Origin: an uncultured delta proteobacterium
GTDB taxonomy: Bacteria; Desulfobacterota; Binatia; UBA9968
Length of the DNA stretch: 64,000 nucleotides
Direction of reading: 5' to 3'
Assembly: GCA_963727625.1 (NCBI GenBank)
Contig: CAVSHR010000005.1
Coordinates: 544,001 to 608,000 of the forward strand
The stretch's first letter is position 1. Each line of letters begins with the position of its first letter. The position numbers and the translations under genes were made by a program. Below are positions 53,874-63,044 of the stretch, piece after piece. The notes below the pieces were generated by a model, which made no database searches, was not told where the DNA came from, and saw only the letters and a program-made list of their open reading frames with translations.

Positions 53874-54092
53874 ATAGAGCTGGTCGACAGCCCTATCGGG
53901 AAAAAACTTGTCATGAGGGGCTTCCGCAAGTTTCAATTGACGTTCAGTTCCCGTTCCCGCCTTCCCAATGCCTCGGTTGACTCCCAATCGGGCAATCTAT
54001 AATAATTGAAGTCAAATCCGCTGGGCTTGAGTATCATATCCTCACGCCAGTTCGCAGATTCCGGTAACGTAATGAGCACTTAAGGAGGCATT

Positions 54093-55289
54093 ATGGATCA
54101 TCCCGCTGAGCAATCATTTCAGGAACCGACCGATAAAAAGACCCGGGCTGGCTATGGAAAATTTCTCCGGCCTAATACACCCTATGACAACTTCATGGAG
54201 TCGCAGGGCATTCCAATCTATCGCGACATCGGCGTCCGCCGCGTTCAGGACTTGCCGCGCAAGCCGTGGAAGCGCATGGGCGGCAACGGTACCTTCATCC
54301 AGCTTCTGGGCACCGAGGGGCTGTGGGGCTGCTACGTCGTCGAAGTTCCTGGCGCCGGGGCTTTGAACCCGGAAAAGCATCTTTACGAAGAACAATATCT
54401 CGTCGTCGACGGCCGTGGCACGACCGAGGTTTGGATCGAAGGCAATCCGAAGAAGGTCACCTTTGAGTGGCAAAAGGGTTCGATGTTTGCCATCCCGATG
54501 AATGCGACGCATCGTATCGTCAACGCAACTTCGAGCCCGGCGCTTCTGCTGGGCGGCACCACAGCGCCGAACGTCATGAATAACTTCGGTAGCGACGATT
54601 TTATCTTCAATTGCCCCTATCACTTCAAAGATCGTTTCGATCCGAGCGACGACTACTACAAGTACAAAGAAGAAGTCACGCCTGATCCGCTCCGGGGTCT
54701 CGCCATGCGCCAGACCAACATCATTCCCGACGTGATGTCCTGCGAGTTGCCCATGGACAACCGCCGCTCGCCGGGTTACCGGCGCATCGAACCGCACATG
54801 GCGGGACAGCAATTCTATATGTGGATCGGCCAGCATGAAACCGGCCGTTACTCGAAGGCGCATGCCCATGGCTCCGCCGCGGTGCTGATTTGTCTCAGCG
54901 GCAAAGGGTATACCTACACCTGGCCGTCAAAATTAGGCACCCACCCCTGGGAGAACGGCACGACAGAAGAAATCAGACGGCAGGACTATGAACCGGTGGG
55001 CATGGTGAGCGCCGCGCCGATGAGCGGCAATTGGTTCCACGCTCACTTTGGCGCGAGTAAAGAGCCGCTGCGTCTCACCGCCTGGTTCGGTCCCAATGCG
55101 CCGGGACGCGACCGCGGCAAGCCTGGCGAGAAGGGCATCGACTACGGCGCTATCGACATGAAAGATGGCGGCACGGCAATCCCGTACAACGAAGAAGATC
55201 CGTATCTCCGTAAAGAGTTTGAAGAAACGCTCGCGAGCGTCGGCGCGAAATCCCGCATGGAGCCGGAACTCTATACGCACTCCTACTGA
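54093..55289 (+). CDS. Bicupin protein (gentisate-dioxygenase-like fold), function unknown
   Basis: EKHLYEE..VVDGRG / FAIPMNATH; KAHAH..LSGKG / WFHAH; RBS AAGGAGG. Confidence 0.82.
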   Translation: MDHPAEQSFQEPTDKKTRAGYGKFLRPNTPYDNFMESQGIPIYRDIGVRRVQDLPRKPWKRMGGNGTFIQLLGTEGLWGCYVVEVPGAGALNPEKHLYEEQYLVVDGRGTTEVWIEGNPKKVTFEWQKGSMFAIPMNATHRIVNATSSPALLLGGTTAPNVMNNFGSDDFIFNCPYHFKDRFDPSDDYYKYKEEVTPDPLRGLAMRQTNIIPDVMSCELPMDNRRSPGYRRIEPHMAGQQFYMWIGQHETGRYSKAHAHGSAAVLICLSGKGYTYTWPSKLGTHPWENGTTEEIRRQDYEPVGMVSAAPMSGNWFHAHFGASKEPLRLTAWFGPNAPGRDRGKPGEKGIDYGAIDMKDGGTAIPYNEEDPYLRKEFEETLASVGAKSRMEPELYTHSY

Positions 55290-55308
55290 GAATCAATCAC
55301 TGTCTAGT

Positions 55309-55362
55309 GTCTAGCGTCTCGGGTTTAGCGTTCGAATGAACGCTAAACCCGAGACGCTAGAC
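55309..55362. repeat. Perfect 25-bp inverted repeat built from GTCTAGC-like heptamers
   Basis: GTCTAGCGTCTCGGGTTTAGCGTTC-GAAT-GAACGCTAAACCCGAGACGCTAGAC. Confidence 0.92.
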
Positions 55363-55394
55363 GTCAAACCAAACTTTCTCGTCCAAGGATTTTC

Positions 55395-56879
55395 ATGGCC
55401 ACCGCACCTAGAGGTTCGTTTTCCAATGCCAACCGCCACATGCAGGAAGAGGAAACTCTTCAGCTCACCAGCGTGGGCGTGGATATCGGCTCGTCGACAT
55501 CGCATCTGGTTTTTTCCCGACTTGAGTTGACCCTCGAAGGTTCGCGCTATCGTGTGACCAAACGCGACGTGTTGAACGAGTCGCAAATACTCCTGACTCC
55601 CTACGTCGATGACACTCGAATCGACGTTGAGGCGCTGGAAACCTTCATCAACGAACAATACAAGAATGCCAAGATCCGCCGCGAGGATGTCGACACCGGT
55701 GCGCTCATACTCACCGGTGTCGCCGTGCGCCGGCGCAACGCCCGCGCCATCGCCGAGCTGTTCGCGGAGGAGGCGGGAAAATTCGTTGCGGTAAGCGCCG
55801 GGGACGGCTTGGAGGCGACCATGGCGGCGCATGGCTCCGGCGCGGTCGCCCACTCGGAGAAAATCGGCGGTGTCGTGCTCAACGTCGACATCGGCGGCGG
55901 CACCAGCAAGTTTGCCATCTGCAACAACGGCAAGGTCCAGGAGGTTTCGGCCCTCGACATCGGCGCGCGCCTGCTCGCCTTCGACAAGGATGGCGCGGTC
56001 GTGCGCATCGAAGAGGCCGGCCGCAAACATGCCGGCTGGGCGGGATTCGCGGTGGAGCTCGGCAAGAAAATTCCGCAGGACAGTCTGAAGAAGATGGTCG
56101 CCGGCATGATTGATAAGCTGTTCGTCATGCTCAAACCGGGGGAGGCCAGCGAAGAGATCAAGGGGCTGTTGCGCCTGCCGCCGCTCACTTACCGAGGTGA
56201 GATCGATTGCGTAATGTTTTCGGGCGGCGTTTCCGAATTCATCTACAATCGAACCAAAACCACTTTCGGCGACCTGGGACCGCTGATCGCCGAGGAGGTC
56301 CATCGGCGCATGAGCGACCTGGGTCTCCTCGTCATGGAACCCAATGCGCGCATTCGGGCCACCGTGATCGGCGCGTCCCAGTATACCGTGCAAGTGAGCG
56401 GCAACACCGTATTCATATCACCGGTAGAAGCCGTGCCAGTTCGCAATATCGCCGTGGTGGCGCCGGAGTTTCCGCTCGACAACGACGAGTTCACCAAAGA
56501 AGCGGTGCGCGATGCGACGCTAAGCGCGCTACGGCGTCTCGATCTCTTGAGCGCGCGCCAACCGGTAGCGGTCGCCTTTCATTGGGACGGCTCGGCGACG
56601 TTTTTCCGCCTCCAAGCCTTTTGCAGCGGCATCGCCGAAGGGCTAAAGGACATTCTGGCCAAAGGCCATCCGTTGGTGCTGGTCAACGACGGCGACATTG
56701 GCGGCATTATCGGGCTTCACTTCCAAGAAGAATTGCAGACGCAGGCGTCGATCATTTCTATCGATGGCATCGCCCTCAGCGATTTCGATTACATCGACAT
56801 CGGCGCGCTCATCCAGTCGTCCGGTGCTGTGCCGGTGGTTATCAAATCCCTGATCTTTCCCGCCTCGCCGCAACAATAA
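55395..56879 (+). CDS. EutA-like (ethanolamine ammonia-lyase reactivase family) actin-fold ATPase
   Basis: SVGVDIGSSTS, TGALILTG, FVAVSAG, NVDIGGGTS, FSGGVSE, IRATVIGA, DFDYIDIG...VPVVIKSL. Confidence 0.88.
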   Translation: MATAPRGSFSNANRHMQEEETLQLTSVGVDIGSSTSHLVFSRLELTLEGSRYRVTKRDVLNESQILLTPYVDDTRIDVEALETFINEQYKNAKIRREDVDTGALILTGVAVRRRNARAIAELFAEEAGKFVAVSAGDGLEATMAAHGSGAVAHSEKIGGVVLNVDIGGGTSKFAICNNGKVQEVSALDIGARLLAFDKDGAVVRIEEAGRKHAGWAGFAVELGKKIPQDSLKKMVAGMIDKLFVMLKPGEASEEIKGLLRLPPLTYRGEIDCVMFSGGVSEFIYNRTKTTFGDLGPLIAEEVHRRMSDLGLLVMEPNARIRATVIGASQYTVQVSGNTVFISPVEAVPVRNIAVVAPEFPLDNDEFTKEAVRDATLSALRRLDLLSARQPVAVAFHWDGSATFFRLQAFCSGIAEGLKDILAKGHPLVLVNDGDIGGIIGLHFQEELQTQASIISIDGIALSDFDYIDIGALIQSSGAVPVVIKSLIFPASPQQ

Positions 56880-56914
56880 AAAGCCGGGAGAATTTTTCTC
56901 TCCCGGCTTTTTTT
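56879..56914. terminator. Bidirectional intrinsic terminator
   Basis: AAAA-GCCGGGAGA-loop-TCTCCCGGC-TTTTTTT between convergent genes. Confidence 0.88.
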
Positions 56915-56952: not shown

Positions 56953-58035
56953 TTAGACCCTAAAAAAGCGCTTGGCATTTTCACCTAAAACCGCGGCCTT
57001 TTCTGCATGGCTCAAGTCAGGCCGCTCCACAGTTTCGTGGATCATTTGCTTGGCCGCCACTAAATCGACTTCGTGGGGATAGTCGGACGCGTACGAAAGC
57101 GCGTCGGCGCCACATTGTTTGATAACGTACGGCAAGATCCATTCGTTCCCCTCACAGCCGACAACGACCTGGCCGCTGGAGAGGTAATCATTGAGGCTGC
57201 GCGAATGGCCGGTGCTGGTGGTGTAGACGTTGTCGTCGCGGTCCATGCGATCTTTGAGGAGCAGCAGCCAAGCGCAACCACCTTCGAAAAAACCGATATG
57301 TAAGTCTTTATAACGATCGAGAACGCCGTGATAGACCAAGGACACGAACTCAAGAGCCAACGGCATTGGATGTCTTAAAACGCGCGCTGCCCAGGGATCG
57401 GTAAAAGTATCGGCGCCGAGCCCAATGCTCGAGCCGCCATGAATTCCCAAAGCGCAGCCGAGATTGGCCGCCTCCTCGTAAACCGGCCAGTAATAATCGT
57501 GACCGAGATGAAGCGGCAAACCGCGCGACGGCAGCATCGCTCCCGGAAGCTTTAGATCCACCACCAAGCGGCGCAATTCCTTTACGGCTTCCTTGACATC
57601 CTGCATGGCGATCAGGCCCATCGGGTGAAGCCGCGAGTCGACTTTGCGGTAGCGCTCCGAGACATAATCGTTAAAGGCGCGGCAAACGCGCGTCGCGTAA
57701 TCTGCTTGTTGGAAAAAGCCCACCGAAAGTCCTTCGGACGGGAATAGCACGGCTTGCGAAACCGCCGCATTCTCCAAGAAAGCGACCCAATCTTCGCCCG
57801 AACCTTTGCGATGATCGCTGGCGTCGACGCGCGGCCGACGCGGCGCCTCGACCTCGCCGCTCTTGCGCACATTTCTCGGATAGTGAATATCGTCAAGGCT
57901 GGCAAATACTCCCTGGCGATTTCTCGACGGAGTCAATGCAACTTCACGATCCACTGGATCGAGAAACGGCACCATTTCCGGAATCGACTCGATGATATGA
58001 CCGTCACAATCAAAGACCCTAATTTTTTCTGCCAC
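56953..58035 (-). CDS. Amidohydrolase-2-family protein
   Basis: DCDGH, FNDY, GIHGG, FEGG, ASDYPH, GENAKRF; GTG at 58035 after GGAGG. Confidence 0.88.
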   Translation of the reverse strand: MAEKIRVFDCDGHIIESIPEMVPFLDPVDREVALTPSRNRQGVFASLDDIHYPRNVRKSGEVEAPRRPRVDASDHRKGSGEDWVAFLENAAVSQAVLFPSEGLSVGFFQQADYATRVCRAFNDYVSERYRKVDSRLHPMGLIAMQDVKEAVKELRRLVVDLKLPGAMLPSRGLPLHLGHDYYWPVYEEAANLGCALGIHGGSSIGLGADTFTDPWAARVLRHPMPLALEFVSLVYHGVLDRYKDLHIGFFEGGCAWLLLLKDRMDRDDNVYTTSTGHSRSLNDYLSSGQVVVGCEGNEWILPYVIKQCGADALSYASDYPHEVDLVAAKQMIHETVERPDLSHAEKAAVLGENAKRFFRV

Positions 58036-58411
58036 GCGAAATTCCTCCAAAAACTTTTTGGTATATGACGATTTTTCTACCACAAAGCCCTGGCCGACGA
58101 AAATAGCCGCTCTGCGGCGGTTGAGGCTTCTTCGACACCGCGCTGAGGCGTGACAATCATCCCATCCCGCGCGCGGACCAGATCGAAACCTTAAGTCGAA
58201 CCGAGGTATTTTTTTCCTCGGCCATCGGTCGAGGATGTTTTTATGCCGATCATGCCCAGCAATCGCCATCGCTTGCCAAAAATTACAGGAGGCCGGCACA
58301 AACTTGCGCGGAAGCAAAAATTTGTTCGAATTTTTCGTAAAACTCTCGCCACTTATCTTGACAACGCCGGTCGTTACGCCTAAAACCGACCCCGTTATCA
58401 GGGCTGCAACT

Positions 58412-61466: not shown

Positions 61467-61952
61467 TTAGCTCTGGCTCACGGTGCCGCTACGCTTTTCC
61501 TGCGCTGCGCGCACCGCCCGCAAAATATCCGCGTAGCCGGCGCAGCGGCAGAGGTTGCCAGCTAGATAGTCGCGGATCTCGTCATCGGTGGGATTGGGAG
61601 TTTCATCCAGTAGCGCCTTGACGGACAAGACAAAGCCCGGTGTGCAATAGGCGCACTGCAACGCCCGCTGTTCGACAAAGGCTTCTTGAATGCTGTCGAG
61701 CTTAGAACCATCGCCGAGACCCTCCAGCGTGGTGATCTTGCAGCCGGCGGTTCGTGCCGCGAGCAAGAGGCAACTGCTGACCGGGCGGCCATCCAACAGC
61801 ACCGTGCAACTGCCGCAGGCGCCCACGCCGCAACTTTCGCGCACGCTCCAGAGTTTCAGACGATCGCGCAAGACCTCCAAAAGGGTCTCGGCATCGCCAA
61901 TCTGCAGCATTTCAGCGCGATTGTTGACTCGGAGCGTGATTTCGCGATTCAT
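61467..61952 (-). CDS. [2Fe-2S] small subunit of a xanthine-dehydrogenase/CoxS-family enzyme
   Basis: CGVGACGSC..SC, QCAYCTPG, GNLCRC. Confidence 0.93.
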   Translation of the reverse strand: MNREITLRVNNRAEMLQIGDAETLLEVLRDRLKLWSVRESCGVGACGSCTVLLDGRPVSSCLLLAARTAGCKITTLEGLGDGSKLDSIQEAFVEQRALQCAYCTPGFVLSVKALLDETPNPTDDEIRDYLAGNLCRCAGYADILRAVRAAQEKRSGTVSQS

Positions 61953-62014
61953 ACAAAATTATCCTTTAGGTAGGCCTTGGCTTGTTTTGGCCGCCCGTTG
62001 CAAGAGTTCTCAGG

Positions 62015-62878
62015 TCATTGTTGACCGCTGTTCAACTGCTCCACGGCTTTTTTCACGAACAACCGAGCCATCCGGCGCTTGTACCATTCTGAACCTCTCA
62101 AATCAGAGAAAGGTGAAATTTGTTTTTCGACGATTTCGAGCATTCGGTCGATCAGAGCGTGGTCGATGGCTTGGTCTCGCGCGAATTCTAATCCGTCAAC
62201 TAACAGCGGCGTTGCAGCCACGCCTCCGAGCGCCAAGCGCAAATCTTGGCAACGACCATTTTCTCTGATTAAGAGCCCGGCCACTCCCAGACAGGGCCAG
62301 TCGTTGGCCGACAGCGCCGTATAACGCAGATAGGCGGACTGGCTGCCCTCCGGCATGAAAGGTACTTTGACATCGACCAAAATTTCCGCCGGATCTAATG
62401 CGGTTTCGTACATGCCGCGGAAAAAATTCTTGAGCGGAATAGTCCGCGAACCCTTGGGGCCAAAAACAGTGACCTCAGCACCGAGCACGAGCAGCGGCGG
62501 CGGCGGGTCGAGGCGATAGTCGGCATGGGCGAGGTTGCCCCCCACAGAGGCGGTTTGCCGCACCCGCACGTTGCCGATCTGGGCGAAGGCTTGAACTAGT
62601 GCTGGAAACGCTTGCCTAATGACGGCGGAAGTCTCCACCATGCGATGGGTCACGAGCGCGCCGATGCGCACGCCATCGGTTTCGCTTTTGATCTCGCCCA
62701 AGCCGGGGACCGATTGAAGATCGACTAAATAGGGATAGTGAAGCGCGCGCTGCTTCATCAAGACGACCAACGTCGTGCCGCCGCCAATTAGGCGGGCGTC
62801 ATCGCCATGCTTTTGCAGCAAATCCACGGCTTCCTGCACGGAGTGCGGTTGGAGTAAATCGAAGGAACAAATCGTCAT
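62015..62878 (-). CDS. FAD-binding medium subunit (CoxM/XdhB family)
   Basis: GGGTTL, IGALVT, RVRQTASVGGNL, DLRGS..YK. Confidence 0.9.
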   Translation of the reverse strand: MTICSFDLLQPHSVQEAVDLLQKHGDDARLIGGGTTLVVLMKQRALHYPYLVDLQSVPGLGEIKSETDGVRIGALVTHRMVETSAVIRQAFPALVQAFAQIGNVRVRQTASVGGNLAHADYRLDPPPPLLVLGAEVTVFGPKGSRTIPLKNFFRGMYETALDPAEILVDVKVPFMPEGSQSAYLRYTALSANDWPCLGVAGLLIRENGRCQDLRLALGGVAATPLLVDGLEFARDQAIDHALIDRMLEIVEKQISPFSDLRGSEWYKRRMARLFVKKAVEQLNSGQQ

Positions 62879-63044
62879 CGGTTGCCTCAAGGAGTCGCTG
62901 TTTTTCTATCCTTACACCGCTCTAGAATCAAGCATGCAAATTTTTGCACGGGGTCACCGGCCGGCGGAAATCTGCCGGCAAGTTCTCCGGTTGACAGGCG
63001 CAGCCAACTTTGAGATGAATCCGACTTAAAGGGAGGGCAAAACC

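Follow-up and report, generated by a model that had tools for sequence, protein, structure and literature searches.

Why does a bacterium that lacks ethanolamine ammonia-lyase keep a full-length gene of the EutA family, and why does that gene lie directly behind a gene for a bicupin? The question is raised by positions 54,093 to 56,914 of a 64,000-nt stretch of DNA (the window) from an uncultured delta proteobacterium (GTDB lineage Bacteria; Desulfobacterota; Binatia; UBA9968), taken from GenBank assembly GCA_963727625.1, contig CAVSHR010000005.1, positions 544,001 to 608,000. EutA performs the ATP-dependent reactivation of the B12-dependent ethanolamine ammonia-lyase (EutBC) and has been treated as a B12-specific accessory of ethanolamine catabolism. 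This work describes a large part of the EutA family that is tied to bicupins instead. The two genes of the window very probably form a conserved functional pair outside the ethanolamine utilization (eut) system, and our data support the repurposing of a EutA-family ATPase to a non-B12 cupin partner. As to what the ATPase does there, we give a probability of about 0.5 to the reading that it would act, by analogy with EutA, as an ATP-driven activase or reactivase of the bicupin metal centre. The novelty would lie in the client, which is of a class not previously assigned to this reactivase-type family of ATPases.

The pair consists of two open reading frames (ORFs), which agree with those of an initial annotation of the window made from the letters alone:

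54093-55289, + strand: bicupin gene (P0001), ORF of 398 amino acids (aa).
55395-56879, + strand: EutA-family ASKHA ATPase gene (P0002), ORF of 494 aa.

The second gene encodes a complete EutA-family protein. The Pfam model PF06277 (EutA) matches P0002 with 391.5 bits over model positions 2-474 of 475, and the protein shares 33% identity with E. coli EutA (b2451) over 481 alignment columns. Its structural model (predicted local distance difference test, pLDDT, 87) displays the same architecture as EutA, namely an actin-fold core (residues ~22-332) followed by a C-terminal alpha/beta domain (~335-490). The ATP motifs, which had been called intact, are the same as in EutA and proved to be invariant in 52 aligned relatives: D30, G32 and T35, which we take to be the phosphate-1 motif of the ASKHA literature, D165, G167-G169 and T170, likewise taken as phosphate-2, and the SGG stretch S276, G277 and G278. 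A further likeness is that P0002, as EutA, is encoded beside its presumed client.

Unlike EutA, P0002 has no EutBC, bacterial microcompartment (BMC) or B12 context, and its partner is a bicupin. The genome (6.6 Mb, 15 contigs, 98.45% completeness, 6.3% contamination) gave no match to EutB, EutC or the BMC shell domain in its entire assembled length, while the same searches were positive for the E. coli control; the absence first noticed within the window thus extends to the whole genome. No B12-binding family was found among the scanned neighbours of the window pair or of the paralogous loci. EutB was detected in one of ten other pair-carrying genomes (G159), on a different contig from the pair. 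In addition, P0002 scores 325, 257.8, 226.2 and 209.8 bits on the four NCBIfam EutA equivalog models, for which the cut-offs are 598, 769, 952 and 799, so that none is reached.

A quick maximum-likelihood tree of 53 ATPase sequences places 44 rows, including all bicupin-linked copies, in one group (Shimodaira-Hasegawa-like approximate likelihood ratio test, SH-aLRT, 99), separate from E. coli EutA, which sits on a long branch with near-identical fused forms. The copy of genome G140 falls in a second clade, together with two long proteins that carry the source label EutA. Canonical EutA is represented by E. coli-like sequences only and the root is poorly sampled; because canonical diversity is so thinly covered, the tree is taken to show only that P0002 is not close to E. 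coli EutA. P0002 further differs from E. coli EutA by a conserved 19-residue N-terminal extension with a conserved F-S-N-x-x-R motif, which reads G-G-R-I/V-F-F-S-N-x-G-R in its orthogroup and R-G-S-F-S-N-A-N-R in the Binatia version. The initial annotation would have given up the idea of a repurposed reactivase if eutBC had turned up elsewhere and the protein had belonged to the canonical EutA clade; the genome holds no eutBC, the best score on an equivalog model is 325 bits where 598 would be needed, and in the tree P0002 groups apart from E. coli EutA.

JGI and NCBI label homologs of this ATPase 'ethanolamine utilization protein EutA'. The practical weight of the finding derives from this public annotation, since such labels wrongly imply ethanolamine use in organisms without the lyase.

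The conserved gene order strongly suggests a functional link. A collection of one genome per species (GTDB) was scanned with an alignment of EutA-like paralogs, which yielded at least 597 relatives. The best 80 loci, with ATPases 47-88% identical to that of the window, were kept; genes were called with an ORF caller aware of GC content at third codon positions (GC3), and adjacency was counted by tblastn. In 59 of the 80 loci the gene directly upstream, on the same strand, encodes a bicupin, and in six the bicupin is located elsewhere in the locus. The 59 paired loci stem from at least five phyla and are labelled Binatia, Chloroflexota (including Dehalococcoidia), Alpha-, Beta- and Gammaproteobacteria, and Acidobacteriota, although this proportion is not a statistical sample because the loci come from related species. 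Between Binatia and Proteobacteria the bicupins share 60-68% identity and the ATPases 50-56%, which makes the bicupin the more conserved partner. Among the carriers are cultured organisms, labelled Ensifer sp., Phyllobacterium sp. and a Rhizobiales isolate, in which the question is directly testable.

The pairing also recurs among paralogs. The window's own genome encodes five full-length EutA-family genes and 23 full-length family bicupins. A family bicupin lies directly upstream of three of the ATPase genes (the window copy and those on contigs C3 and C4); a fourth (C5:162 kb) has one downstream within a same-strand cluster, and the copy on contig C12 has none nearby. In five further genomes (G151-G155), 12 of 14 EutA-like genes have a family bicupin no more than 1.5 kb away (ten times upstream in the same orientation, once downstream and once divergent), as do five of six in three more genomes from an evenly drawn class-level sample. 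Some of the G151-G155 pairs have a bicupin and an ATPase with just 30-38% and 40-44% identity, respectively, to those of the window. Taken gene by gene over these nine genomes, 21 of 25 EutA-like genes are found within ~3 kb of a family bicupin. In G151 and G152, where the bicupin family is small, no member is unpaired (2/2 and 3/3 paired). Many of these paralogous pairs are distant from the window pair (bicupin 28-38%, ATPase 39-44% identity), and the association therefore predates the diversification of both families. A lack of conserved cupin linkage, which had been named as the other ground for dropping the idea, is thus contradicted by both the 59 adjacent loci and the paralogous pairs.

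The bicupin and ATPase module has a patchy distribution. Of 151 genomes sampled from the phylum of the window, three contain full-length EutA-family genes, and relatives of P0002 occur in 4 of 201 genomes of a class-level sample centred on G151.

In the C5 cluster (L018:6763-12087, C5:158-164 kb) the genes are, in order, the ATPase, an iron-containing redox enzyme of the Haem_oxygenas_2 family, a gentisate-dioxygenase-like bicupin and the family bicupin. The third of these scores 286-297 bits on gentisate/5-aminosalicylate dioxygenase models, which is under their cut-offs. The ATPase of this locus is thus followed by what are probably three iron enzymes.

The partner itself is a bicupin in structure, although Pfam detects its N-terminal barrel only, with Cupin_2 (32.9 bits, cut-off 27.2, residues 85-153) and Cupin_1 (23.0 bits), all cupin matches falling within residues 85-159. 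The AlphaFold2 model, built with 55 relatives, has a pLDDT of 92.2 and a predicted template modelling score of 0.90, and shows two beta-barrels (N-terminal ~45-160, C-terminal ~225-335). Residues 3-369 of this model align with solved bicupins at Z up to 20.6 (VIA-align), which justifies the name. A Foldseek search of the PDB returned generic bicupins (template modelling score 0.40-0.47), no solved structure matched by sequence search at E up to 1, and an ESM Atlas search gave unnamed cupin clusters only.

The bicupin family is large: in a set of 1.84 billion representatives, 696 clusters (50% identity) match at E 1e-30 or better. Its members carry source names such as 'cupin domain-containing', 'mannose-6-phosphate isomerase-like' and 'quercetin dioxygenase-like'. 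Besides the 23 copies of the window's genome, 28 matches were found in genome G154 (labelled Dehalococcoidia) and 19 in genome G288. Several bicupin arrays are tandem (e.g. G288:C19:27284-30831). In four relatives of 708-830 aa (P0299-P0302) all domains found are cupins; those of P0299 occur in both halves, and this protein is probably a tandem bicupin.

Two metal sites had been suggested, and the C-terminal one stands. At least 90% of 55 family members retain its HxH (H257, H259)...HxH (H316, H318) signature, and the best-kept residues among these members, which reach down to 28% identity, are Y253, K255, H257, H259, W314, H316 and H318, all in the C-terminal barrel. The site consists of three or four His without the usual Glu, A263 being found at that position. 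Conservation is weaker at the N-terminal site (H96, E99/E100, H141): H96 and E99 are kept, the second motif position is Y or F (H96-x-Y98), and H141 is replaced by Y or F in seven rows, six of which are close orthologs.

Among solved structures, the closest to the bicupin model are gentisate 1,2-dioxygenase (3bu7; Z 20.6, root-mean-square deviation (rmsd) 5.0 Å, 279 aligned residues), salicylate 1,2-dioxygenase (2phd; Z 20.2, rmsd 4.2 Å, 275 aligned) and an E. coli O157 homolog (2d40; Z 19.3, rmsd 3.4 Å, 246 aligned). These dioxygenases are of similar size and, in some loci, the catabolic context with FAA-hydrolase-type genes is similar as well. The sequence identity, however, is only 9-12%, no match of P0001 to the gentisate model TIGR02272 was found at E 0.1 or better, and the 5-aminosalicylate dioxygenase model NF049978 gives 15.9 bits against a cut-off of 650. 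Their lead is genuine but small, since other bicupins follow closely, namely seed globulins, oxalate decarboxylase and quercetinase (Z 17-18.6). Gentisate and salicylate dioxygenases bind iron through a three-His site in the N-terminal barrel. The conserved His cluster of P0001 lies in the C-terminal barrel, and its N-terminal barrel keeps H96 and E99 with a variable H141. Oxalate decarboxylase and other manganese bicupins carry an HxH-x3-E...H manganese site in their barrels; the fold match to oxalate decarboxylase 5hi0 reaches Z 18.4, and P0001 has Y/F at the second N-terminal position and A263 in place of Glu. EutQ, a cupin encoded in eut operons together with EutA, has a single barrel; no EutQ-family match was found among the Pfam matches of P0001 at E up to 0.1.

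From these observations we infer physical binding of the two proteins, a chaperone or metal-exchange role for the ATPase, and the nature of the metal and substrate. The bicupin would hold a metal, probably Fe(II), at the C-terminal HxH...HxH site and would most likely act on a hydroxylated acid, either aromatic or heterocyclic, by cleaving or oxygenating it. The ATPase would bind the bicupin and spend ATP to open it, upon which the active-site metal or a dead-end ligand could be loaded or exchanged, analogous to the action of EutA on ethanolamine ammonia-lyase. The activase role is favoured by the lineage of the ATPase, by its association with very different bicupins and that of sister clades with other metalloenzymes, by the His/Asp-rich tails of related copies and by the design of the operon, the latter three being detailed below. 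The initial annotation had proposed a repurposed reactivase that serves a non-B12 cupin; the repurposing is borne out by the conserved linkage and the lack of eutBC, and to the mechanism we attach the probability given above.

Dedicated helpers of this kind have precedents. The diol/glycerol dehydratase reactivases DdrAB (2d0o) are likewise helpers beside their enzyme, and DdrA is an actin-like ATPase, although no specific relation to P0002 was apparent past the shared ASKHA core. Rubisco activase and the XylT ferredoxin of catechol 2,3-dioxygenase follow the same concept, in which a helper encoded beside an enzyme restores its active site, and have folds unrelated to P0002. We know of no ATP-driven reactivase of a cupin enzyme. 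A literature search, with subscription journals outside its scope, found no EutA relative linked to cupins or placed outside eut, in line with the earlier statement that no example has been characterised. If the ATPase does repair or load a metal centre, this would amount to a new principle by which non-haem metal enzymes sensitive to oxygen are kept active. It would also open a way to the function of a large family of enzymes found in uncultured bacteria of soils and sediments, with the practical hint that the ATPase should be co-expressed when such bicupins are produced.

A direct contact between the partners was modelled. The predicted bicupin-ATPase complex scores 0.45 (runs 0.47, 0.45 and 0.45), whereas none of three controls exceeds 0.00; the runs share at least 66% of their contacts, and the pLDDT of the partner is at least 86. 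Of 80 solved complexes, 58 pass the mark for this score, as do 2 of 110 mismatched pairs, while passing at 0.60 or under is seen for just 7 of the 80 solved complexes, plus both passing mismatches. The multimer modelling proposed for this pair thus gives weak support to a contact, and we read it as mild support because the gene-order prior is strong.

Gene fusions had also been suggested as a check. Long ATPase forms exist and are fused instead to MFS transporters, EutB, EutH or a methyltransferase. Four of them (P0123-P0126, ~880-898 aa, 41-44% identical to the window ATPase) join the EutA-like domain to an MFS_3/MFS_1 transporter, one being from Pseudonocardiaceae according to its source name. 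The 90%-identity cluster of P0001 includes two proteins of 493-495 aa named EutA (P0293, P0294). P0293 is a plain ortholog of P0002 without a cupin part; this oddity of clustering might conceal a bridging read-through protein among 1346 other members of the cluster.

Several results weigh against the activase reading. As to contact, the complex score falls in the zone that is graded weak, and no bicupin-ATPase fusion was found among 13 long ATPase relatives and five long bicupin relatives (0/13 and 0/5), which by itself is weak evidence. As to pairing, a bicupin is missing within ~7 kb in 15 of the 80 ATPase loci, and these 15 do not share any substitute neighbour. At L058 of genome G154, one of the 15, an IS66 transposase adjoins the ATPase gene and the orthologous bicupin (61% identity) is located 1.2 Mb away. 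Conversely, most bicupin paralogs of the expanded genomes have no EutA-like neighbour (19 of 23 in the window's genome, 24 of 28 in G154 and 6 of 9 in G153), including a 68%-identical paralog of P0001 on contig C2. The ATPase must therefore be dispensable for the family as a whole, or act in trans. Co-diversification of bicupin and ATPase is only modest: when 65 comparisons were made between genomes, the best-matching proteins were each other's partners 30 times, with 23 expected by chance, and 12 of these 30 belong to the window's orthogroup. In three bicupins linked to an ATPase (L067, L106, L119), histidines have been lost from the C-terminal site, which fits poorly with a role centred on the metal there. 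The window's own ATPase is without a His-rich tail, and the gene families recurring around the pair differ between lineages and are too varied to single out one substrate. Finally, the ATPase fold is no closer to reactivases (Z 10.9) than to phosphatases, kinases and filament formers (Z 12-17). The unpaired bicupins, the orphan ATPases, the degenerate His sites and the weak complex score weaken the activase reading.

The fold comparison bears on the alternatives as well. The fold neighbours of the ATPase model include Ppx/GppA (Z 15-17, best 17.0), PilM and FtsA (Z 14) and the activator of 2-hydroxyacyl-CoA dehydratase (Z 13), followed by pantothenate and sugar kinases (Z 11-12); the diol dehydratase reactivase 2d0o comes at rank 44 (Z 10.9), under many unrelated ASKHA proteins. 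A sequence search of solved structures gave weak ASKHA matches only. Because these neighbours are generic ASKHA proteins, the fold alone does not decide between a chaperone, an enzyme and a filament.

The alternative that survives best, though we regard it as unlikely, is an ATP-coupled two-component enzyme, a possibility already raised in the initial annotation. The ATPase would phosphorylate, adenylate or activate the substrate of the bicupin, or process its product, in coupled pathway steps for which actin-fold kinases and hydantoinase/carboxylase-type enzymes are models. The intact ATP motifs and the proximity of the fold to Ppx/GppA and to pantothenate and sugar kinases agree with this, as does the position of the pair within catabolic clusters with transporters and hydrolases, and the tight coupling of the operon fits consecutive steps equally well as a chaperone. 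To our knowledge, however, the only studied member of PF06277, EutA, acts on a protein and not on a small molecule. Moreover, this ATPase family accompanies bicupins of 28-38% identity, which probably differ in substrate, and elsewhere aldehyde:ferredoxin oxidoreductase and metallo-beta-lactamase-fold genes. With such varied partner enzymes, a protein-directed helper fits better than a substrate-specific enzyme, and His/Asp-rich tails are atypical of kinases.

Less plausible still is a structural or regulatory actin-fold protein that would form a filament with the bicupin, or serve as its scaffold or sensor, without repairing its active site. The filament formers PilM, FtsA, MreB and ParM are among the fold neighbours (Z 11-14), and the weakly supported contact in the complex model would suit such a role. 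Against this, nothing specific indicates polymerisation, no recurrent membrane or cytoskeletal partners were seen nearby in the 80 related loci, and the extra C-terminal domain and full-length homology to EutA indicate a reactivase lineage.

An ordinary EutA that reactivates a B12 enzyme encoded elsewhere, with the bicupin as a chance neighbour, could account for the PF06277 score, the 33% identity to E. coli EutA and the EutB of G159, but is highly improbable given a genome with five ATPase copies and no EutB, EutC or BMC, nine of ten other carriers without EutB, equivalog cut-offs missed widely, no B12-binding family among the neighbours scanned, and an adjacency in 59 of 80 loci and in paralogous pairs that cannot be chance.

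Returning to the activase reading, subfamilies related to the window ATPase suggest that it may apply beyond bicupins. In four of the five EutA-family copies of the window's genome, His/Asp-rich stretches (DHDHD type) precede the conserved core. Divergent second copies with such tails also lie beside the bicupin-linked copy in four Alphaproteobacterial loci. In EutA-like subfamilies the tail is often followed by NPLW. The tailed copies are located at:

L015:9242-10990, L016:9016-10554, L017:9040-10710 and L018:10618-12087: His/Asp-tailed EutA-like copies.
L069:928-2733, L078:587-2518, L089:4891-7008 and L121:12482-14224: His/Asp-tailed second copies.

Other EutA-family genes neighbour different metalloenzymes. 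In genome G140 (L129:7853-12071), a EutA-family gene ends an operon with a tungsten-type aldehyde:ferredoxin oxidoreductase (AFOR_N/AFOR_C) and a 4Fe-4S ferredoxin, and this oxidoreductase is possibly another metalloenzyme client. In two loci (L122:4623-6853 and L127:4193-6447), a gene of the C12-copy subfamily is followed by one for a metallo-beta-lactamase-fold protein (Lactamase_B_5), with a gene for a large DUF4175 protein on the opposite strand. Together, the His/Asp-rich tails and these metalloenzyme neighbours hint at metal handling. Tentatively, and with less than even confidence, EutA-family ATPases could be general ATP-driven reactivases or metal-centre loaders. The bicupin-linked clade would then be the first ATP-dependent activase known for a cupin (non-haem metal) oxygenase, co-duplicated with its clients in bicupin-rich organisms, and the tailed sister clades would serve tungsten aldehyde oxidoreductases and metallo-beta-lactamase-fold proteins.

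The layout of the two genes in the window is that of a self-contained unit, as first described, with a 219-nt gap upstream of the bicupin gene, a Shine-Dalgarno sequence and a terminator. The following signals were located:

53977-54006, + strand: promoter-like site TTGACT-18 nt-AATAAT, 5' of the bicupin gene, with 10/12 consensus matches.
54082-54088, + strand: Shine-Dalgarno AAGGAGG, read from the sequence, 4 nt ahead of the bicupin ATG at 54093.
55309-55362, + strand: intercistronic hairpin with a perfect 25-bp stem and a 4-nt loop, without a following T run.
55385-55389, + strand: weaker ribosome-binding site AAGGA, read from the sequence, 5 nt ahead of the ATPase ATG at 55395.
56883-56914, + strand: intrinsic terminator, stem GCCGGGAGA/TCTCCCGGC, 7-nt loop, seven T.

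The promoter-like site is a lead only, since the one site observed upstream of the bicupin is no more than shuffled sequences give (mean 1.4). The terminator has a 9-bp GC-rich stem (56883-56907) with a T run up to 56914 and is common to the convergent downstream gene. The two genes are presumably co-transcribed.

The 105-nt spacer between them contains the hairpin, which the initial annotation did not mention. Folded as a 116-nt sequence, the spacer has a predicted energy of -55.4 kcal/mol (z -9.5), with none of 200 shuffles as stable. The hairpin is found in the same position in five close relatives, with compensatory changes at 6 of 21 predicted pairs. It may lower the expression of the ATPase relative to the bicupin, and the order of a strong ribosome-binding site and enzyme, a hairpin, and a weaker ribosome-binding site and ATPase would suit a sub-stoichiometric helper. 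A repeat element was considered as the origin of the hairpin and rejected, as no clear repeat family emerged: a scan of the genome for copies of the hairpin arms gave just loosely similar palindromes with 4-5 mismatches, and the short hairpin motifs are not over-represented in the genome, except GTCTAGTGTCTAG (2 observed vs 0.2 expected). The loosely similar palindromes are of the type GTCTAGCG/GTTTAGCG and lie, for example, at C5:39919, C9:200709 and C4:168246.

Upstream of the pair, the window encodes an exonuclease along with AddB/AddA-type helicase-nucleases. On the downstream side there are a convergent Amidohydro_2 gene, a histidine kinase gene and genes for the small and medium molybdenum hydroxylase subunits. 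None of these neighbours is a B12 or eut gene. Two of the downstream features have the following positions:

56953-58317, - strand: convergent Amidohydro_2 gene (PF04909, 78.7 bits).
61467-62890, - strand: [2Fe-2S] and FAD subunits of a xanthine-dehydrogenase-family molybdenum hydroxylase.

The Amidohydro_2 family recurs in 15 of the 80 related loci, and the convergent gene possibly belongs to the same pathway as the pair. The large subunit of the molybdenum hydroxylase follows in close relatives (L050), and this enzyme may be part of the same catabolic region. Further recurrent neighbours of the pair include TctABC transporters, amidase, IclR regulators, a LigXa-like Rieske oxygenase with ferredoxin, class II aldolase-type decarboxylases, FAA-hydrolase, DUF2848, prolyl aminopeptidase and a NirA-family protein with a formate/nitrite transporter. 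These neighbours point to the catabolism of organic acids, probably aromatic or heterocyclic, and nitro-aromatic, N-heterocycle and gentisate-like routes were considered as candidates for the substrate.

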